A DNA stretch of 64,000 nucleotides from Escherichia phage vB_EcoM_Kelasse. The translations under genes and the position numbers were made by a program. The DNA lies in the sequence record MW749001.1. One strand, given 5' to 3'. The notes under the pieces are model-generated. The model worked only from the letters and a program-made list of their open reading frames with translations. It did not search any database and was not told the DNA's origin. The first letter of the stretch is position 1. The number at the start of each line of letters is the position of its first letter. This document shows positions 40,214 to 50,743 of the stretch, piece by piece.

Positions 40214-40221
40214 TATAAATA
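40214..40221 (+). promoter_or_regulatory. Late promoter TATAAATA for gene 34
   Basis: Exact TATAAATA about 35 bp upstream of the ATG. Confidence 0.55.
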
Positions 40222-40255: not shown

Positions 40256-43200
40256 ATGGCCGAGATTAAAAGAAAGTTCAGAGCAGAAGATGGTCTGGAC
40301 GCAGGTGGTGATAAAATAATCAACGTAGCTTTAGCTGATCGTGCCGTAGGAACTGACGGTGTTAACGTTGATTACTTAATTCAAGAAAACACAGTTCAAC
40401 AATACGATCCAACTCGTGGATATTTAAAAGATTTTGTAATCATTTATGATAACCGCTTTTGGGCTGCTATAAATGATATTCCAAAACCGGCAGGAGCTTT
40501 TAATAGCGGACGCTGGAGAGCATTACGTACCGATGCTAACTGGATTACGGTTTCATCTGGTTCATATCAATTAAAATCTGGTGAAGCTATTTCGGTTAAC
40601 ACCGCAGCTGGTAATGATATTACATTTACTTTACCATCTACCCCAATTGATGGTGATACTATCGTTCTCCAAGATATTGGAGGAAAACCCGGAGTTAACC
40701 AAGTTTTAATTGTAGCTCCAGTGCAAAGTATTGTAAACTTTAGAGGTGAACAAGTACGTTCAGTACTAATGACTCATCCAAAGTCACAGCTAGTTTTAAT
40801 TTTTAGTAATCGTCTGTGGCAAATGTATGTAGCTGATTATAGTAGAGAAGCGGTAATTGTAACACCAGCAAGTCTCTATCAGGCGCAATCTAATGATTTT
40901 ATCGTACGTAGATTTACTTCTGCTGCACCGATAAATATTAAACTTCCAAGATTTGCTAATCACGGCGATATTATTAATTTCGTCGATTTGGATAAATTAA
41001 ACCCTCTTTATCATACAATTGTTACGACATACGATGAAACGACATCAGTACAAGAAGATGGAACTCATTCCATTGAAGGCCGTACATCGATTGATGGCTT
41101 TTTAATGTATGATGATAACGAAAAATTATGGAGACTGTTTGACGGGGACAGTAAAGCACGTTTACGTATCATAACGACTAATTCAAACATTCGTCCAAAC
41201 GAAGAAGTTATGGTATTTGGTGCGAATAACGGAACAATTCAAACAATTGAGCTTCAGCTTCCAACTAATATTTCTGTTGGTGATACTGTTAAAATTTCCA
41301 TGAATTACATGAGAAAAGGACAAACAGTTAAAATCAAAGCTGCCGGTGAAGATAAAATTGCTTCTTCAGTTCAATTGCTGCAATTCCCAAAACGTTCAGA
41401 GTATCCGCCTGAAGCTGAGTGGGTTACAGTTCAAGAATTAGTTTTTAACGGTGAAACTAATTATGTTCCAGTTTTACAACTTGCTTATATAGAAGATTCT
41501 GATGGAAAATACTGGGTTGTGCAACAAAATGTTCCAACCGTAGAAAGAGTAGACTCTTTAAATGATTCTACTAGAGCGAGATTAGGCGTAATAGCTTTAG
41601 CTACACAAGCTCAAGCTAATGTCGATTTAGAAAATTCTCCACAAAAAGAATTAGCAATTACTCCAGAAACATTAGCTAACCGTACTGCTACTGAAACTCG
41701 TAGAGGTATCGCAAGAATAGCAACTACTGCTCAAGTGAATCAGAACACCACATTCTCTTTTGCTGATGACCTTATCATCACTCCTAAAAAGCTGAATGAA
41801 AGAACTGCTACAGAAACTCGCAGAGGTGTCGCAGAAATTGCTACACAACAGGAAACTAATACAGGTACTGATGATACAACCATCATTACTCCTAAAAAGC
41901 TTCAAGCTCGTCAAGGTTCTGAATCATTATCTGGTATTGTAACTTTTGTATCTACTGCAGGTGCTACTCCAGCTTCTAGCCGTGAATTAAATGGTACGAA
42001 TGTTTATAATAAAAACACTAATAATTTAGTTGTTTCGCCAAAAGCTTTGGATCAGTATAAAGCTACTCCAACGCAGCAAGGTGCAGTAATTTTAGCAGTT
42101 GAAAGTGAAGTAATTGCTGGACAAAGCCAAGAAGGATGGGCAAATGCGGTTGTAACGCCAGAAACGTTACATAAAAAGACATCAACTGATGGAAGAATTG
42201 GTTTAATTGAAATTGCTACGCAAAGTGAAGTTAATACAGGAACTGATTATACTCGTGCAGTCACTCCTAAAACTTTAAATGACCGTAGAGCAACTGAAAG
42301 TTTAAGTGGTATAGCTGAAATTGCTACACAAGTTGAATTCGACGCAGGCGTCGACGATACTCGTATCTCTACACCATTAAAAATTAAAACCAGATTTAAT
42401 AGTACTGATCGTACTTCTGTTGTTGCTCTATCTGGATTAGTTGAATCAGGAACTCTCTGGGACCATTATACCCTTAATATTCTTGAAGCAAATGAGACGC
42501 AACGTGGTACACTTCGTGTAGCTACACAGGTCGAAGCTGCTGCAGGAACATTAGATAATGTTTTAATAACTCCTAAAAAACTTTTAGGTACTAAATCTAC
42601 TGAAGCACAGGAAGGTGTTATTAAAGTTGCAACCCAGTCTGAAACTGTGACTGGAACGTCAGCAAATACTGCTGTATCTCCAAAAAATTTAAAATGGATT
42701 GTACAGAGTGAACCTACTTGGGCAGCTACTACTGCGATAAGAGGCTTTGTTAAAACTTCATCTGGTTCAATTACATTCGTTGGTAATGATACAGTCGGTT
42801 CTACCCAAGATTTAGAACTGTATGAGAAAAATAGCTATGCAGTATCACCATATGAATTAAACCGTGTATTAGCAAATTATTTACCGTTAAAAGCAAAAGC
42901 TGCTGATACAAATTTATTGGATGGTCTAGATTCATCTCAATTCATTCGTAGGGATATTGCACAGACAGTTAATGGTTCACTAACCTTAACTCAACAAACG
43001 AATCTGAGTGCCCCTCTTGTATCATCTAGTACTGCTACGTTTGGTGGTTCAGTTTCGGCAAATAGTACATTAACTATTTCTAATACTGGAACAGCAACTC
43101 GTCTGATTTTTGAAAAAGGACCTCAAACTGGAACTAACCCAGCACAGACGATGACTATCAGAGTATGGGGAAATCAGTTTGGTGGCGGATCAGATACAAC

Positions 43201-44125
43201 ACGTTCTACTGTATTTGAAGTTGGTGATGAAACGTCTAATCACTTTTATTCTCAACGTAATAAAGCTGGGAATATAACGTTTAGTATCAATGGTACTGTA
43301 ATGCCAATAAATGTTAATGCTTCGGGTTCTTTGAATGCGAATGGCGTAGCAACATTTGGTAGTTCAGTTACAGCCAATGGTGAATTCATTAGCAAGTCTG
43401 CAAATGCTTTCAGAGCAATAAACGGTGATTATGGATTCTTTATCAGGAATGATGGCGGCAGCACATATTTTATGCTCACTGCATCCGGTGATCAGACTGG
43501 CGGATTTAATGGATTACGTCCATTATCAATTAATAATCAATCCGGTCAAGTCACAATTGGTGAAAGCTTAATCATTGCCAAAGGTGCTACTATAAATTCA
43601 GGCGGTTTAACTGTTAACTCGAGAATTCGTTCTCAGGGTACTAAAACATCTGATTTATATACCCGTGCGCCAACATCTGATACTGTAGGATTCTGGTCAA
43701 TTGATATTAATGATTCAGCTACTTATAACCAGTTCCCGGGTTATTTTAAAATGGTTGAAAAAACTAATGAAGTGACTGGACTTCCGTACTTAGAACGTGG
43801 CGAAGAAGTTAAATCTCCTGGTACACTGACACAGTTTGGTAACACACTTGATTCGCTTTACCAAGATTGGATTACTTATCCAACGACACCAGAAGCGCGT
43901 ACCACTCGCTGGACACGTACATGGCAGAAAACCAAAAACTCTTGGTCGAGTTTTGTTCAGGTATTTGATGGAGGTAACCCTCCTCAACCATCTGATATCG
44001 GTGCTTTACCATCTGATAATGCTACAATGGGGAATCTTACTATTCGTGATTTCTTACGAATTGGTAATGTTCGCATTATTCCTGACCCAGTGAATAAAAC
44101 TGTTAAATTTGAATGGGTTGAATAA
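40256..44125 (+). CDS. 34: gp34 long tail fibre proximal subunit
   Basis: 1289-aa ORF; internal repeats; synteny 34-35-36-37-38. Confidence 0.9.
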   Translation: MAEIKRKFRAEDGLDAGGDKIINVALADRAVGTDGVNVDYLIQENTVQQYDPTRGYLKDFVIIYDNRFWAAINDIPKPAGAFNSGRWRALRTDANWITVSSGSYQLKSGEAISVNTAAGNDITFTLPSTPIDGDTIVLQDIGGKPGVNQVLIVAPVQSIVNFRGEQVRSVLMTHPKSQLVLIFSNRLWQMYVADYSREAVIVTPASLYQAQSNDFIVRRFTSAAPINIKLPRFANHGDIINFVDLDKLNPLYHTIVTTYDETTSVQEDGTHSIEGRTSIDGFLMYDDNEKLWRLFDGDSKARLRIITTNSNIRPNEEVMVFGANNGTIQTIELQLPTNISVGDTVKISMNYMRKGQTVKIKAAGEDKIASSVQLLQFPKRSEYPPEAEWVTVQELVFNGETNYVPVLQLAYIEDSDGKYWVVQQNVPTVERVDSLNDSTRARLGVIALATQAQANVDLENSPQKELAITPETLANRTATETRRGIARIATTAQVNQNTTFSFADDLIITPKKLNERTATETRRGVAEIATQQETNTGTDDTTIITPKKLQARQGSESLSGIVTFVSTAGATPASSRELNGTNVYNKNTNNLVVSPKALDQYKATPTQQGAVILAVESEVIAGQSQEGWANAVVTPETLHKKTSTDGRIGLIEIATQSEVNTGTDYTRAVTPKTLNDRRATESLSGIAEIATQVEFDAGVDDTRISTPLKIKTRFNSTDRTSVVALSGLVESGTLWDHYTLNILEANETQRGTLRVATQVEAAAGTLDNVLITPKKLLGTKSTEAQEGVIKVATQSETVTGTSANTAVSPKNLKWIVQSEPTWAATTAIRGFVKTSSGSITFVGNDTVGSTQDLELYEKNSYAVSPYELNRVLANYLPLKAKAADTNLLDGLDSSQFIRRDIAQTVNGSLTLTQQTNLSAPLVSSSTATFGGSVSANSTLTISNTGTATRLIFEKGPQTGTNPAQTMTIRVWGNQFGGGSDTTRSTVFEVGDETSNHFYSQRNKAGNITFSINGTVMPINVNASGSLNANGVATFGSSVTANGEFISKSANAFRAINGDYGFFIRNDGGSTYFMLTASGDQTGGFNGLRPLSINNQSGQVTIGESLIIAKGATINSGGLTVNSRIRSQGTKTSDLYTRAPTSDTVGFWSIDINDSATYNQFPGYFKMVEKTNEVTGLPYLERGEEVKSPGTLTQFGNTLDSLYQDWITYPTTPEARTTRWTRTWQKTKNSWSSFVQVFDGGNPPQPSDIGALPSDNATMGNLTIRDFLRIGNVRIIPDPVNKTVKFEWVE

Positions 44126-44133
44126 GAGGTATT

Positions 44134-45249
44134 ATGGAAAAATTTATGGCAGAGTTTGGACAAGGATATGTCCAAACGCCATTTTTATCGGAAAGCAATT
44201 CAGTAAGATATAAAATAAGCATAGCGGGTTCTTGCCCGCTTTCTACAGCAGGACCATACGTTAAATTTCAGGATAATCCTGTAGGAAGTCAAACATTTAG
44301 CGCAGGCCTTCATTTAAGAGTTTTTGACCCTTCCACCGGAGCATTAGTTGATAGTAAATCATATTCTTTTTCGACTTCAAATGATACTACATCAGCTGCC
44401 TTTGTTAGTTTCATGAATTCTTTGACGAATAATCGAATTGTTGCTATATTAACTAACGGAAAGGTTAATTTTCCTCCTGAAGTAGTATCTTGGTTAAGAA
44501 CAGCAGGAACGTCTGCTTTTCCATCTGACTCTGTGTTGTCAAGATTCGACGTATCATATGCTGCTTTTTATACTTCTTCTAAAAGAGCTATTGCATTAGA
44601 GCATGTTAAACTGAGTAATAGAAAAAGCACAGATGATTATCAAACTATTTTAGATGTTGTATTTGACAGTTTAGAAGACGTCGGAGCTACCGGGTTTCCA
44701 AGAAGAACGTATGAAAGCGTTGAGCAATTTATGTCAGCGGTTGGTGGAACTAATAACGAAATTGCCCGTCTACCTACAGCATCTGCAATAAGTAAATTAT
44801 CTGATTATAATTTAATTCCTGGCGATGTTCTTTATCTTAAAGCTCAGTTATATGCTGATGCCGATTTACTTGCTCTTGGAACTACAAATATATCTATCCG
44901 TTTTTATAATGCATCAAATGGATATATTTCCTCGACACAAGCTGAATTTACCGGACAAGCTGGGTCATGGGAATTAAAGGAAGATTATGTAGTTGTTCCA
45001 GAAAACGCTGTAGGATTTACGATATATGCACAAAGAACTGCTAAAGCTGGCCAAGGTGGCATGAGAAATTTAAGCTTTTCTGAAGTATCAAGAAACGGCG
45101 GTATTTCAAAACCTGCTGAATTTGGCGTCAACGGTATTCGTGTTAATTATATCTGTGAATCCGCTTCACCTCCGGATATAATGGTACTTCCTACGCAAGC
45201 ATCGTCTAAAACTGGTAAAGTGTTTGGGCAAGAATTTAGAGAAGTATAA
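44134..45249 (+). CDS. 35: gp35 long tail fibre hinge
   Basis: 371-aa ORF. Confidence 0.85.
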   Translation: MEKFMAEFGQGYVQTPFLSESNSVRYKISIAGSCPLSTAGPYVKFQDNPVGSQTFSAGLHLRVFDPSTGALVDSKSYSFSTSNDTTSAAFVSFMNSLTNNRIVAILTNGKVNFPPEVVSWLRTAGTSAFPSDSVLSRFDVSYAAFYTSSKRAIALEHVKLSNRKSTDDYQTILDVVFDSLEDVGATGFPRRTYESVEQFMSAVGGTNNEIARLPTASAISKLSDYNLIPGDVLYLKAQLYADADLLALGTTNISIRFYNASNGYISSTQAEFTGQAGSWELKEDYVVVPENAVGFTIYAQRTAKAGQGGMRNLSFSEVSRNGGISKPAEFGVNGIRVNYICESASPPDIMVLPTQASSKTGKVFGQEFREV

Positions 45250-45280
45250 ATTGAGGGAGCCTTCGGGTTCCCTTTTTCTT

Positions 45281-45288
45281 TATAAATA
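45281..45288 (+). promoter_or_regulatory. Late promoter TATAAATA for gene 36
   Basis: TATAAATA about 25 bp upstream of the ATG, after a cttcgg hairpin at 45253..45272. Confidence 0.5.
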
Positions 45289-45311: not shown

Positions 45312-45974
45312 ATGGCTGATTTAAAAGTAGGTTCAACAACTGGAGGCTCTGTCATTTGGCATCAAGGAAATTTTCCATTGAATCCAGCCGGTGACGATGT
45401 ACTCTATAAATCATTTAAAATATATTCAGAATATAATAAACCACAAGCTGCTGATAACGATTTCGTTTCTAAAGCTAACGGTGGTACTTACGCCGCGACT
45501 GTTCGATTTAATGGAGGCGTACATGTTCCTACTATAGGTAGTAGTCAACAGTGCGGTGTTTATCCAGGTAACGGTGATGCAGCTACTTTTGCTATGGCAA
45601 ATATTGACATCGTTTCGTGGAATGGTATTGGTTTTAAATCATCACAAGGTTCAGCAGACCGAACTGTTGTAATTAATGCACGTAATGGTGATATTAGTAC
45701 AAAAGGCGTTGTGACAGCAGTAGGTCAAATAAGAAGTAATGCAGTTTCTCCTGTATCAGCAAATGACCTTACTAGAAAGGACTATGTTGATGGAGCAATA
45801 AATACTGTTACAGCAAATGCGAACTCTAGGGTGCTACGATCTGGTGACACCATGATAGGTAATTTAACAGCGCCAAACTTTTTCTCGCAGAATCCTGCAT
45901 CTCAACCTTCACATGTTCCACGATTTGACCAAATCGTAATTAAGGATTCTGTTCAAGATTTCGGCTATTATTAA
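45312..45974 (+). CDS. 36: gp36 long tail fibre distal subunit (small)
   Basis: 220-aa ORF. Confidence 0.85.
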
Positions 45975-45982
45975 GAGGACTT

Positions 45983-48900
45983 ATGGCTACTTTAAAACAA
46001 ATACAATTTAAAAGAAGCAAAACCGCAGGTGCACGTCCTGCTGCTTCAGTATTAGCCGAAGGTGAATTGGCTATAAACTTAAAAGATAGAACAATTTTTA
46101 CTAAAGATGATACAGGAAATATCATTGATCTAGGTATTGCTAAAGGCGGTCAAATTGATGGAAATGTAACTATTGATGGAACTTTACGCGTCAATGGACC
46201 AATAAACAACTTTGGAAATTTTTCTACAAGTGGTACTATTACGGCAAGTAATATTGTTTCTGCTACAGTATTCAGATCAACATCCGGTTCATTTTATACA
46301 AGAGCAATAAATGATACTGCAAATGCCCATCTTTGGTTTGAAAATACGAATGGATCGGAGAGAGGGGTTTTATATTCAAAACCACAGTCTGAAAATGAAG
46401 GCGTAATTACAATGCGCGTTCGCCAAGGAACCGCAGCAGGGGCTCAAAATTCAGAATTTCATTTCATTTCTACTGATGGCGGTATCTTCCAGGCACGCAA
46501 ATTAACTGCTTTAACTTCTATTAGTACACCAACTATTAGTGTTAATTTAATTAATCATGATTCTAAAGCCTTTGGACAATACGATTCACAATCATTAGTT
46601 CAGTATGTTTATCCTGGAACCGGTGAAACAAATGGTGTAAACTATCTTCGTAAAGTTCGAGCTAAATCAGGTGGCACTATGTGGCATGAAATCTGTACAG
46701 CTCAGACAGGACAAGCTGATGAAATGTCATGGTGGACTGGTAATACTCCTCAGTCTAAACAATACGGTATTCGTAATGACGGACGAATGGCTGGACGTAA
46801 TAGCCTTGCATTAGGTACATTCACTACAAATTTCCCGTCTAGTGATTATGGCAACGTCGGTGTAATGGGCGATAAATATCTTGTTCTCGGTGACACTGTA
46901 ACTGGCTTGTCATACAAAAAAACTGGTGTATTTGATCTAGTTGGCGGTGGATATTCTGTTGCTTCTATTACTCCTGACAGTTTCCGTAGTACTCGTAAAG
47001 GTATATTTGGTCGTTCCGAGGACCAAGGCACCACATGGATTATGCCTGGCACTAATGCCGCTTTCTTGTCTGTTCAAACACAAGCTGATAATAACAATGC
47101 TGGAGACGGCCAGACGCATATTGGGTACAATGCTGGCGGTAAAATGAGTCATTATTTCCGCGGTAAAGGCAAAACTAATATTAATACTCAGGAAGGTGTA
47201 GACGTTAACCCGGGTATATTGAAGTTAACCACCGGCGGTGAAAGTATTAGCTTTAATGCCGCAACTGGAAGTATTAATTCTACATTAGCTTTTCGTCTTA
47301 ATAAAGGCATAATTATTGATGGACCTGATAATCAGGGATTCCAGTTTAACGCCCCGACGGCTGCAGATGGTACTAGAAGTATATACTGGAACAGTGGTAC
47401 TCGCGCAGGTCAAAACAAAAGCCCTGTTACAGTTAAAGTGTGGGGTAATTCATTTAACGCATCGGGCGATCGTGCTCGTGAAACGGTTTTTGAAGTAGCT
47501 GATGGGCAAGGTTTCCATTTTTATTCTCAACGTGTAGCTCCTGCGCCTGGTTCTACCGTCGGACCTATTCAATTTCGAGTTAATGGTGGTTTATTAACTT
47601 CTGGTGGTATTACATCATCTGGTTCTATTGTTACTGAATCAAGTTTAGTTGCCAATAATGGCATGTCAGTAAATGGTCAGGCTAAATTTGGCGGAACAGC
47701 AAACGCACTGAGAATTTGGAACGCTGAATACGGTGTTATTTTCCGTCGTTCTGAAAGTAACTTTTACATTATTCCAACCAATCAAAATGAAGGCGAAAGC
47801 GGAGACATTCATAGCTCTTTGAGACCTGTAAGAATAGGATTAAACGATGGCATGGTTGGGTTAGGAAGAGATTCTTTTATAGTAGATCAAAATAATGCTT
47901 TAACTACGATAAACAGTAACTCTCGCATTAATGCCAACTTTAGAATGCAATTAGGGCAGTCGACATATATTGATGCAGAATGCACTGATGCCGTTAGACC
48001 TGCAGGGGCTGGTTCATTTGCCTCGCAAAATAATGAAAACGTCCGTGCTCCGTTCTATATGAATATTAATCGCACAGATACAAGTACTTACGTTCCAATT
48101 GTTAAACAGAGATACGTACAAAATAATAGTTGCTATTCTATTGGTACTTTAATTAATGGCGGTAATTTTAGAGTTCATTATCATGAAGGTGGTGATGGCG
48201 GTTCTACTGGCGCGATTATAAAGGATTTAGGTTGGGAATTTAATAAAAACGGTGATTTTTACTCTCCTGGTAAATTAGGTGCTGGAAATATTCGTATCGG
48301 AACAGACGGTAATATTACAGGTGGTTCTGGTAATTTTGCTAACTTGAATACCACATTAAACCGTAAGGTCAATTCCGGATTTGTAACATACGGTGCAACT
48401 GCTGGATGGTATAAATTCGCTACAGTAACGATGCCACAATCTACTTCTACTGTTTCATTTACTATAACTGGTGGTAAAGGATTTAATACCGGACTGTTTA
48501 CACAATGTGCTATAACAGAAATTGTTCTTCGTACTGGTAATGACCGCCCAGCAGGTTTAAACGCCGTGATGTATACCAGAACAGCTGCAGGTCTTACTGA
48601 TATTGCTGTAGTTAATACCTCAGGAAATACATATGATATCTATGTTGAATCTGGTACTTATGCCAATCAATTAGCTTATACATGGCATACAGTTGATAAT
48701 GCTACAGTAGAAGTTATCGGCGCTTTTGGTCCTACTCAAGACCCGGTAGATTCTTTGCCGGCTGATTATGTTAAAGGCCAAGTAGCTAACATGCTTAACA
48801 ACCTGGTAGACACAGGTAAAGTAAAACGTTATGTAGCAGAATCTGAAATTGCTATTAATAACCAAACGGGTCTTCGTATTACGAGTAATTCTGATAGATC

Positions 48901-49921
48901 AGGTTCTAATTCCGTTTTATTTCGAAATGACGGTGGAAGCTTCTATATTTTACTGACTGACAAAAACTCTTCAGACGGCGATAATAAAGCAACTGAAGGC
49001 GATTGGAATGGAAAACGACCGTTTTCAATCGATATGACTGCTGGTACTGTTCGTCTTGGCGAAAATACTTCTTTTGATAAAGATATTACTATTAATGGAA
49101 ACATTAATTCACGAGTTAAAGCTGCCGGACAATGGAGTGTTAGCTTTTCTGCTATTTCAGATGTGACTCGCGACAATTCTGCATTCTTAGCGAATACGGG
49201 TGGCATTTCCAAGACAAGTCAAGCTTATTACCCGCTATTTTCTGGATACAGTTTTTTAACTGACGCGGGTTATCGACAATCGTTTGAATTTGGATGGTTA
49301 GGTGTTTCTGGTACTTGGCGCCAAGGCATTATTCGCATGCGTGGTGACAACGCATCGGGGCAACAGGCTCGTTGGACTTTTGATATGGACGGAACATTTT
49401 ATGCTCCTATACTATCATGCGGATCTGCGAGAGCATTCGGTGTCAATACATCAAATGGTCTCGGTGGAAACAGTATAACATTTGGTGATAGCGATACTGG
49501 TATTAAGCAAAATGGCGATGGATTATTAGACATATATGCGAACAGCGTACAAGTGTTCCGTTTCCAAAACGGTGATTTGTACTCATACAAAAATATAAAT
49601 GCTCCAAACGTTTATATTCGTTCTGATATTCGTTTAAAATCCAACTTCAAACCTATCGAAAATGCACTTGATAAAGTTGAAAAACTCAACGGTGTCATTT
49701 ACGATAAAGCTGAATACATCGGTGGAGAGGCAATTGAAACTGAAGCGGGTATTGTGGCTCAAACGTTACAAGACGTTTTACCAGAAGCTGTCCGTGAAAC
49801 AGAAGACAGTAAGGGTAATAAAATACTCACTGTTTCTTCTCAAGCCCAGATTGCTCTTCTAGTTGAAGCTGTGAAAACACTTTCTTCTCGTGTAAAAGAA
49901 CTTGAATCTAAACTTATGTAA
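45983..49921 (+). CDS. 37: gp37 long tail fibre distal subunit with C-terminal intramolecular chaperone-like domain
   Basis: 1312-aa ORF; C-terminal RSDIRLKSN motif followed by about 100 aa. Confidence 0.85.
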
Positions 49922-49923
49922 AG

Positions 49924-49939
49924 GAGGGCTTCGGCCCTC
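49924..49939 (+). other. CUUCGG hairpin between genes 37 and 38
   Basis: gagggcttcggccctc. Confidence 0.45.
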
Positions 49940-49951
49940 TAAGGATTTTTA

Positions 49952-50743
49952 ATGGCAATTGTAGGTGTTCCTGGCTGGATTGGTGAATCTGCCGTGAATG
50001 AAACTGGACAACGCTGGATGGACGCTGCGATGAAAGCTGTTCGTGTTTCAGTTCCCGGTTGGATGAGTTCAATGGCTGGGCAATCTAAAGAAGTATATTA
50101 TAGCGTTGGTGCTAGCAATTCTTACAATAAAGACACACTAATAAATTGGATAAAAGCCCAAGGCAGTACTCCTGTTGTTATTACTATTACAGGAAATATT
50201 GTTTCTCAATCTACTGGTGTTCCATGCTTAGATTTTCCTAGCTCATTAACTAATGCATATGTTACCTTAAATATTAATAGTGGGGTTCATGTATTAGGTC
50301 GGGGAGGAAATGGCGGAAGTAACTCTGCTGGCGGAGCAGGAGGAACTGCAATAAATAACGGAATTGGAACTCGTTTAAGAATAAACAATAATGGTATTAT
50401 TGGTGGCGGCGGAGGTGGCGGCGCTGGTGCTAGATACCATCCTTTCCCTCAAATGGATATGATATTTGGTGGCGGCGGAGGTCGTCCATTTGGCGCAGCT
50501 GGCGCAGCAGGAGGTGGCGCAGCGGCAGCATCCGCTGGTACAATTTCTGCTCCTGGTAAAGGTACTGTTTCTGGGGTTCACTATGGAGGAAATGGTGGAG
50601 ATTTGGGAGCTGCTGGCAAATCTTCATATATTAAAGGTGGTACTGGAGGAACTGTTCACTCGGGTGGTGCTGCGGGTAAAGCTGTTACTGGTAATGCTCC
50701 AACTTGGACTAAAGTTGGCACAATATATGGTTCAAGAGTATAA
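49952..50743 (+). CDS. 38: gp38 tail fibre adhesin, T2-type with glycine-rich motifs
   Basis: 263-aa ORF; Gly-runs (GGGGGGG, GGGGG) separating variable segments. Confidence 0.8.
   Translation: MAIVGVPGWIGESAVNETGQRWMDAAMKAVRVSVPGWMSSMAGQSKEVYYSVGASNSYNKDTLINWIKAQGSTPVVITITGNIVSQSTGVPCLDFPSSLTNAYVTLNINSGVHVLGRGGNGGSNSAGGAGGTAINNGIGTRLRINNNGIIGGGGGGGAGARYHPFPQMDMIFGGGGGRPFGAAGAAGGGAAAASAGTISAPGKGTVSGVHYGGNGGDLGAAGKSSYIKGGTGGTVHSGGAAGKAVTGNAPTWTKVGTIYGSRV

Follow-up and report, generated by a model that had tools for sequence, protein, structure and literature searches.

A T2/T6-type receptor-recognition module in phage vB_EcoM_Kelasse, with a gp37 fibre subunit predicted to cleave itself and a gp38 adhesin probably directed at Tsx

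Organisation of the receptor-recognition module

Genes 37 and 38 of Escherichia phage vB_EcoM_Kelasse form, with a probability that we put at roughly 0.93, the distal receptor-recognition part of a Tequatrovirus long tail fibre of the T2/T6 type. This figure covers the whole explanation jointly (self-cleavage of gp37, capping by gp38 and binding of Tsx), and nothing in the data contradicts a fibre tip of this type. In outline, gp37 would be made as a 1312-residue precursor in which the segment Ser1214-Met1312 (99 residues), a chaperone of the S74 family, helps the fibre tip to trimerise and then releases itself, the Arg1213-Ser1214 bond being cut via Ser1214 and Lys1219. The newly bared tip, NAPNVYIR, identical to that of T2, would receive one copy of gp38, whose T2-type N-terminal domain would dock there via three conserved tryptophans and whose glycine-rich motifs would build a polyglycine-II core presenting four variable loops. 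These loops would bind Tsx, the outer-membrane nucleoside channel of E. coli, as the primary, reversible adsorption step that fixes host range. Gene structure, family membership, conservation of the dyad and of the tryptophans, identity to T2 and Bas43, and absence in T4 were computed here; cleavage, virion incorporation, monomeric stoichiometry, the polyglycine-II fold and Tsx binding are transferred from homologues and the literature.

The window, that is, the whole stretch of 64,000 nt from record MW749001.1 that was analysed, holds gp34, gp35 and gp36 upstream of gene 37 and holin t downstream of gene 38 (open reading frames and Pfam), in the canonical T-even order 34-35-36-37-38-t. The succession of gene 37, gene 38 and holin t is common to T2, T6, Bas35, Bas36, Bas38, Bas39, Bas43, Bas45 and the window. 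A preliminary description of this DNA had given gp37 and gp38 lengths of 1312 and 263 residues, which are exact, as are the coordinates of the reading frames; it had also proposed a T2-type module composed of a gp37 with a chaperone domain and a gp38 adhesin, on which Pfam, PDB and the alignments agree. The features are as follows.

45281..45288, + strand: TATAAATA, agrees with the late-promoter consensus of T4; 24 nt before the start codon (ATG) of gene 36 (by position)
45312..45974, + strand: gp36, distal hinge connector that holds the gp37 N-terminus (Pfam Phage_T4_gp36, E 3.3e-37)
45983..49921, + strand: gene 37, long tail fibre distal subunit precursor (open reading frame; 1312 aa, 140.6 kDa)
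45983..49621, + strand: predicted mature gp37, aa 1-1213, 129.8 kDa, ending NAPNVYIR (alignment to the S16 cleavage site)
47372..47995, + strand: gp37 shaft domain, aa 464-671, homologous to the gp34 C-terminal region (Pfam Gp34_trimer, E 1.2e-9)
49619..49624, + strand: predicted autocleavage site Arg1213/Ser1214 (alignment to S16 LNVS-SDRRIK)
49622..49918, + strand: C-terminal intramolecular chaperone, aa 1214-1312, 10.8 kDa (Pfam Peptidase_S74, PF13884)
49923..49940, + strand: intergenic hairpin GGAGGGC-UUCG-GCCCUCU, lying after the gene 37 stop and ahead of gene 38, with a T-rich stretch downstream (folding)
49952..50743, + strand: gene 38, tail-fibre tip adhesin (open reading frame; 263 aa, 25.6 kDa)
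49952..50077, + strand: gp38 N-terminal attachment domain, aa 1-42, with Trp9, Trp22 and Trp37, T2 subtype (Pfam Gp38_N)
50297..50677, + strand: gp38 specificity domain with glycine-rich motifs GRM1-5 and hypervariable segments HVS1-4 (alignment of adhesins; Trojet 2011 scheme)
Glycine-rich motifs of gp38: GRM1 aa 116-122, GRM2 151-157, GRM3 173-181, GRM4 212-216, GRM5 238-242
Hypervariable segments of gp38: HVS1 aa 123-150, HVS2 158-172, HVS3 182-211, HVS4 217-237

Architecture of the gp38 adhesin

The gp38 protein matches Pfam GP38 (PF05268) over aa 47-263 with 232.4 bits (E 7e-69) and Gp38_N (PF21721) over aa 1-42 with 64.7 bits, the cut-off being 25 in each case, and it belongs to PHROG 2056 (E 2e-101). 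Structural homologues are the S16 adhesin (PDB 6F45_D; E 1.3e-48 over aa 8-261) and PP01 gp38 (PDB 9V85; E 6.7e-32). Glycine accounts for 23% of all residues and for 33% over aa 120-263, with runs of seven (151-157), five (173-177) and three (187-189). The layout follows the published scheme of five glycine-rich motifs around four hypervariable segments (Trojet 2011, PMC3157838), and across adhesins for Tsx, OmpF, OmpA and FadL the glycine motifs stay constant while the sequence between them varies. An earlier view of gp38 as a glycine-rich adhesin of the T2/T6/Ox2 type is borne out by this arrangement together with the GP38, Gp38_N and 6F45_D matches. Homology to 6F45_D implies a polyglycine-II sandwich fold; an AlphaFold2 model built from the single sequence without an alignment had a pLDDT of 32.8, too low for a fold search.

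The attachment domain is 95% identical to that of T2 and 67% identical to that of T6. Its three tryptophans are kept in all nine aligned adhesins and in S16, and such conserved tryptophans plug into the gp37 tip (PMC7917993). Subtypes of the gp37 tip and of the gp38 N-terminus co-vary (Trojet 2011, PMC3157838), and PP01 gp38 is functional on T2 gp37 only when it carries the T2 N-terminal 113 aa (PMC12892980). The T2-type pairing of tip and N-terminus would show engineers which adhesins can replace this one and still attach.

Receptor specificity

The adhesin is 100% identical to gp38 of the BASEL phage Bas43 (TadeuszReichstein), for which the BASEL supplementary table lists Tsx as the experimentally determined primary receptor and the LPS deep core as the terminal receptor. 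Because of this identity we infer that Tsx is also the primary receptor of the window gp38. The same identity to an adhesin of a Tsx-dependent phage, taken with the literature, suggests that gp38 sits at the fibre tip of the virion and sets receptor specificity. The preliminary description had left the receptor open and had named the variable gp38 loops as the likely host-range determinants; the loops keep that role, and the match to Bas43 now points to Tsx. The adhesins of T6, Bas35, Bas36 and Bas39 are of the same family and have Tsx as receptor, as is presumed for the window gp38, and all five share an HVS2 core, PF(P/S)QM, that the OmpF, FadL and OmpA binders lack. Over the specificity domain, identity is about 60% to T6, Bas35 and Bas36 and 70% to Bas39, and given this divergence the mode of Tsx binding may differ from that of T6.

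A primary receptor other than Tsx, perhaps OmpA, or Tsx combined with a second receptor, would be in keeping with several features of these sequences: the specificity domain is 59% identical to that of the OmpA adhesin of Bas45, HVS3 and HVS4 are markedly unlike those of the T6-type Tsx set, and small changes in T6-like adhesins add recognition of OmpA or LPS, as in PST (PMC3157838). One or two substitutions can switch specificity in the gp38 family (Trojet 2011, PMC3157838). We nonetheless regard such a receptor as improbable, since the protein is the same, residue for residue, as that of the experimentally Tsx-dependent Bas43 and since gp38, not gp37, carries specificity in fibres of the T2/T6 type (PMC3157838, PMC12892980).

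With Tsx as the preferred receptor, the dissimilarity of HVS3 and HVS4 to the T6-type segments and the limited identity over the specificity domain lead us to a more speculative proposal, namely that the Bas43-type adhesin could conceivably be a second, structurally distinct solution to Tsx binding that uses other Tsx loops or an added co-receptor. We hold this to be rather unlikely; if it were true, Tsx mutants that escape T6-type phages might stay sensitive to Bas43-type phages, and the second mode would matter in the design of phage cocktails. The Bas43-type adhesin appears to move between genera, and Krischvirus phages carry copies that are about 90% identical.

The gp37 chaperone domain and its predicted self-cleavage

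The gp37 protein matches PHROG 1699 ('long tail fiber protein distal subunit') over its full length, and its shaft domain at aa 464-671 also matches T4 gp34 in PDB entries 4UXE/5NXF (E about 1e-16). The chaperone domain occupies the last 99 of the 1312 residues, at the extreme C-terminus of this distal fibre subunit. Peptidase_S74 matches aa 1214-1271 with 56.7 bits (E 2.9e-15; cut-off 22 bits) over the entire model (1-58 of 58), a sequence match that is far above chance. It begins at the motif RSDIRLKSN (aa 1213-1221, nt 49619-49645), where Ser1214 and Lys1219 of SDIRLK form a putative dyad at the start of the domain, the lysine lying five residues downstream of the serine. Both residues align with SDRRIK of S16; MYRF has ADLRAK at this position. 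In the PDB, the domain matches S16 gp37 (6F45_A, E 4.4e-12) and MYRF (7DC3, E 1.3e-3). All nine gp37 proteins compared from phages with gp38 adhesins keep SDxRxK, at 99-113 residues from the C-terminus. The full-length S74 match and the alignment of SDIRLK to the S16 site thus agree with the original assignment of an intramolecular chaperone to the end of gp37; the 'about 100' residues that had been placed beyond RSDIRLKSN come to 98 counted from Ser1214 and 91 counted from the motif.

Cleavage of S16 gp37 has been reported between two serines, DLNVS^SDRRIKK, and an equivalent R^S cleavage has been predicted for the fPS phages at DVYIR^SDGRLK (PMC7917993). Autocleavage of the last 113 residues in S16 uncovers the docking surface for gp38 (PMC7917993), and C-terminal cleavage has been reported for gp37 of T2 and T6 (Trojet 2011, PMC3157838, whose reference list has Drexler et al. 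1986 on T2 gp37 processing). By analogy, the window gp37 is very likely to remove its folding domain itself. The gp37-gp38 complex of S16 (PDB 6F45; Dunne et al. 2018) is the structural prototype, with an autocleaved chaperone and a monomeric polyglycine-II gp38 that caps the tip. It differs from the window module in that S16 binds Salmonella OmpC with variable loops unrelated to those of the window gp38, in that its released domain has 113 residues as opposed to a predicted 99, and in that Ser, not Arg, precedes the cleavage site. Chaperones of the endosialidase S74 type (K1F endoNF, T5 pb1, MYRF) likewise begin with a Ser-Lys motif and lie at the C-terminal end of a trimeric fibre protein, and according to the literature act through trimerisation followed by autoproteolytic release. 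Unlike a tailspike chaperone, the window domain sits on a T-even fibre shaft, where its removal is predicted also to create a docking site for a separate adhesin.

It is very improbable that the S74 domain is instead a degenerate relic that stays uncleaved in the mature fibre, with gp38 docked on or beside it. Room for such a relic comes from the fact that gp37 cleavage in this phage is predicted from homologues and that the AlphaFold2 model of aa 1140-1312 is uninformative (single sequence without an alignment; mean pLDDT 50.3, too low for a fold search). We rejected a degenerate domain because the dyad retains its Ser and Lys and the Pfam match spans the whole model; moreover, the end of gp37 is essentially that of T2 gp37, which is reported as processed (PMC3157838), and S16 offers gp38 a docking surface only once the domain has left (PMC7917993). 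Under the preferred reading of the module, the mature gp37 end can be placed at Arg1213 and the receptor called as Tsx, both from sequence alone. The cleavable gp37 chaperone, the polyglycine adhesin gp38, the logic of glycine-rich motifs and hypervariable segments, and the adhesin's receptor have all been published already, so that no open question of the field is advanced and the value lies mainly in annotation and prediction.

Mosaic relationship to T2, T6 and closer relatives

In these comparisons the module is a mosaic, its gp37 tip and gp38 attachment domain being of the T2 type and its variable loops of a diverged Tsx type, 60% identical to T6. The label 'T2-type' in the preliminary description therefore fits the tip and the attachment domain but not the receptor-binding loops, which are closer to those of Tsx-binding adhesins. 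T2 (AP018813) shares the architecture, in that its gp37 ends in a Peptidase_S74 domain and the next protein carries GP38 plus Gp38_N. The last 125 residues of its gp37 (window aa 1188-1312), which include the tip and SDIRLK, are identical at 124 of 125 positions, whereas overall identity is 65% and the shaft is mosaic, with some segments at 20-48%. The gp38 specificity domains are 43.5% identical, and T2 uses FadL/OmpF where the window adhesin would use Tsx. T6, Bas35 and Bas36, by contrast, have a T6-type attachment domain (64-67% identical to that of the window gp38) and a gp37 tip of GSFSDVYIR with a 113-residue chaperone, as against NAPNVYIR with 99 residues. HVS3 and HVS4 of the window gp38 are distinct from the T6-type segments, and HVS4 is without the T6-type Cys.

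Among closer relatives, Bas43 (MZ501106) has the same gene order and a gp37 of equal length that is 91.3% identical, its 114 substitutions being concentrated in aa 226-525. The modules of vB_Eco_Geo (OZ034685) and Kha5h (KT184312) are 98.6% and 97.6% identical to the window in DNA, both with 98.6% amino-acid identity in gp37 and with one and two differing residues in gp38, respectively; relative to these two phages there are scattered substitutions only. Their gp38 is labelled 'tail assembly protein' in the vB_Eco_Geo record and 'receptor recognizing protein' in the Kha5h record. The Kha5h record also places a 13-bp 'attP' inside gene 37, an annotation without visible support.

Contrast with T4

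A difference from T4 had been noted from the outset, and it holds for both proteins. Pfam finds Collar and Phage_fiber domains but no S74 in T4 gp37, and the reverse, S74 but neither Collar nor Phage_fiber, in the window gp37; T4 gp38 gave no GP38 match when searched with Pfam, and BLASTP found no similarity between it and the window gp38 (E 8.6). On these findings we rejected membership of the T4-type distal fibre. It is hardly credible that gp38 serves as an assembly chaperone in the T4 manner, staying out of the virion while gp37 itself binds the receptor. All that favours this is legacy annotation of near-identical genes (RB18, vB_Eco_Geo, AV109/114/115), against which stand the lack of likeness between the two gp38 proteins, the strong agreement of the window gp38 with the adhesin family, including the crystallised proteins of S16 and PP01, the S74 domain in place of a T4 Collar and Phage_fiber tip, and the RefSeq note on T4 gene 38, according to which the 'gp38' of the T2 subfamily is unrelated and is an adhesin. 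Labels on orthologues in database records include 'distal long tail fiber assembly catalyst' and 'tail assembly protein'.

Transcription signals

The T4 late-promoter consensus is TATAAATA, and the copy at 45281..45288 likely starts a late transcript of 36-37-38(-t); none was found directly upstream of gene 37 or gene 38. Its assignment as a late promoter is positional, because the motif occurs 11 times in the window against 9.3 expected, which is not above chance. A scan for sigma-70 promoters gave 30 sites where 25.9 were expected, which is chance level, and Rfam at the gathering threshold and ARAGORN found nothing across the whole window. The intergenic UUCG hairpin has a folding energy of -13.4 kcal/mol, although in its 56-nt context it is not significantly stabler than shuffled sequences (z -1.26); it may act as an mRNA stabiliser or a partial terminator.

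Genomic setting of genes 37 and 38

Genes 37 and 38 occupy exactly the coordinates assigned to them in the preliminary description, within a Tequatrovirus genome segment of ordinary T-even gene order:

40256-44125, gp34, upstream (1289-aa translation and synteny)
44134-45249, gp35, proximal hinge connector, upstream (PHROG match)
45312-45974, gp36, upstream (Pfam match)
45983-49921, + strand, gene 37 ORF, 1312 codons
49952-50743, + strand, gene 38 ORF, 263 codons
50776-51432, T holin, downstream (Pfam match)

Phages including Kha5h and the BASEL collection phages Bas39 and Bas43 are 96-98% identical to the window across 25-kb stretches. Neither tRNA genes nor Rfam families reaching threshold were found in the 64-kb window (1-64000). 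Residues 58-127 of gp35 score 37.2 bits on the Pfam family ILEI ('interleukin-like EMT inducer'), above its cut-off of 27 (E = 4.2e-9).

The gp37 chaperone domain and its predicted cleavage

Pfam identifies the chaperone-like domain proposed for the C-terminus of the distal fibre subunit gp37 as Peptidase_S74 ('chaperone of endosialidase'), matched in full over aa 1214-1271 with a score of 56.7 bits (cut-off 22; E = 2.9e-15). The RSDIRLKSN motif (aa 1213-1221), described as preceding about 100 residues, leaves 98 residues C-terminal of Ser1214. In a PDB sequence search, the last 173 residues of gp37 matched the gp37 fragment from the gp37-gp38 complex of Salmonella phage S16 (6F45_A, E = 4.4e-12) and the S74 domain of MYRF (7DC3, E = 1.3e-3), the former aligning S16 LNVS-SDRRIK with the segment around SDIRLK. 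S16 gp37 cleaves itself between the two serines of S-SDRRIK, releasing its last 113 residues and thereby exposing the docking surface for gp38, and an equivalent R^S site has been predicted for DVYIR^SDGRLK fibres (PMC7917993). On this basis cleavage is predicted at Arg1213|Ser1214, which would release 10.8 kDa and leave a mature protein of 129.8 kDa. Phage T2 gp37 differs from that of the window at a single position in the last 125 residues. C-terminal cleavage of T2 and T6 gp37 is reported by Trojet et al. 2011 (PMC3157838), who cite a paper on T2 gp37 processing (Drexler et al. 1986). Chaperone removal would be followed by incorporation of gp38 into the virion as a monomeric cap, which would then bind Tsx.

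As had been proposed, this architecture, which is shared with T2 and T6, differs from that of T4: T4 gp37 contains Collar and Phage_fiber domains but no S74 domain, and T4 gp38 matches no Pfam family and does not resemble the window gp38 in sequence (E = 8.6).

Architecture of the gp38 adhesin and its pairing with gp37

The tip adhesin gp38 matches the Pfam families GP38 (232 bits) and Gp38_N (64.7 bits), the solved S16 adhesin structure (6F45_D; gp38 aa 8-261, E = 1.3e-48) and the receptor-binding domain of PP01 gp38 (9V85, E = 6.7e-32). Glycine makes up 23% of the protein and 33% of its C-terminal half, with runs of seven, five and three, which bears out the poly-Gly motifs noted earlier. 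Alignment of gp38 with adhesins of experimentally known specificity (T2, T6, Bas35, 36, 38, 39, 43 and 45; nine adhesins aligned) resolved five invariant glycine-rich motifs (aa 116-122, 151-157, 173-181, 212-216 and 238-242) separating four variable segments, and three conserved tryptophans in the attachment domain. This is the glycine-rich motif/hypervariable segment (HVS) architecture of Trojet 2011 (PMC3157838), and corresponds to the polyglycine-II sandwich of Dunne 2018, as summarised elsewhere, a fold that gp38 would presumably adopt. Single-sequence AlphaFold models of gp38 and the gp37 C-terminal end were unusable.

Amino acid identity of gp38 domains to those of related adhesins
Attachment domain (aa 1-42): T2 95%; T6 67%; Bas39 (Tsx) 98%
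Specificity domain (aa 116-240): T2 43.5%; T6 60%; Bas39 (Tsx) 70%

The gp37 tip is the same as that of T2, with no differences, and unlike that of T6 (GSFSDVYIR). This pairing of a T2-type tip with a T2-type attachment domain fits both the 'lock-and-key' co-variation of gp37 C-terminal with gp38 N-terminal subtypes (Trojet 2011, PMC3157838) and a swap experiment in which PP01 gp38 functioned on T2 gp37 only with the T2 N-terminal 113 residues (PMC12892980).

Near-identical gp38 proteins in the records of RB18, vB_Eco_Geo, AV109/114/115, SA20RB and teqsoen are labelled 'distal long tail fiber assembly catalyst' or 'tail assembly protein'. These labels, a legacy of T4 gene 38 naming, are wrong for this adhesin family.

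Receptor specificity

The gp38 of Bas43 (Escherichia phage TadeuszReichstein) is 100% identical to that of the window. Bas43 has Tsx as primary and the LPS deep core as terminal receptor (BASEL supplementary table), specificities having been determined experimentally using receptor mutants (BASEL paper). The alignment with adhesins of known specificity, suggested in the preliminary description, groups HVS2 (ARYHPFPQMDMIF) with those of the Tsx binders T6, Bas35, Bas36 and Bas39 through a common PF(P/S)QM core, which is missing from HVS2 of the aligned OmpF, FadL and OmpA binders. We infer that the window gp38 binds Tsx. The only loose end is that HVS3 and HVS4 of this Tsx adhesin type are unlike those of T6, so the contacts made on Tsx may differ.

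Mosaicism of the gp37 shaft

Compared with the four aligned gp37 proteins that have a T2-type tip (T2, Bas39, Bas43 and Bas45), the shaft of the window gp37 (aa 76-1125) is strongly mosaic: neighbouring 75-residue blocks flip between >95% and <50% identity, with different phages. Residues 1-75 are conserved; residues 76-225 are common almost only to Bas43 (aa 76-150, 100%, versus 12-20% to the other three); residues 601-675 are T2-like (97%) and 676-750 Bas45-like (99%); and residues 1201-1312 are 97-100% identical to all four. This block-wise switching points to repeated recombination inside the fibre gene. Residues 464-671 (47372-47995) share homology with the C-terminal part of gp34 (PDB 4UXE, E = 1.6e-16), a segment also found in gp37 of T4, T2 and T6.

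The Kha5h record marks 13 bp within gene 37 (KT184312 12831-12843; about 47471-47483 in the window) as an 'attP prophage attachment site (type 2851)'. Such a site is implausible in a strictly lytic T-even phage, and a match of 13 bp is probably due to chance.

Promoters and intergenic hairpins

The T4 late-promoter consensus, TATAAATA, and G+C-rich UUCG-tetraloop hairpins followed by T-rich sequence occur upstream of and between the fibre genes:

40214-40221, + strand, exact TATAAATA, 35 nt 5' of the gene 34 ATG
45253-45274, + strand, hairpin just past the gene 35 stop
45281-45288, + strand, exact TATAAATA, 24 nt 5' of the gene 36 ATG
49923-49940, + strand, hairpin just past the gene 37 stop

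Neither gene 37 nor gene 38 is directly preceded by TATAAATA; this pattern suggests a single late transcript spanning 36-37-38. Stable C(UUCG)G hairpins are classically described in T4 intergenic regions; the two found here look like them and are candidate partial terminators or mRNA stabilisers. Promoter and hairpin statistics for the window are at chance level (11 consensus matches against 9.3 expected; hairpin stability z = -1.26 against shuffles).

Relatives of the module

At the DNA level the module shares 98.6% identity with that of vB_Eco_Geo (OZ034685), and gp37 is 98.6% identical in amino acid sequence to those of Geo and Kha5h. Its gp38 is the same as in a published phage whose receptor has been typed, and the module contains nothing substantially new. 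Copies of gp38 (aa 8-263) of about 90% identity occur in the 163.7-164.1-kb phage records FL37, FL38, kaaroe, MIZ2/3/6 and W115. Two of these, FL37 and FL38, are classed as Krischvirus phages, and in them gp38 does not adjoin the holin; such copies suggest that this adhesin type has been transferred between genera.
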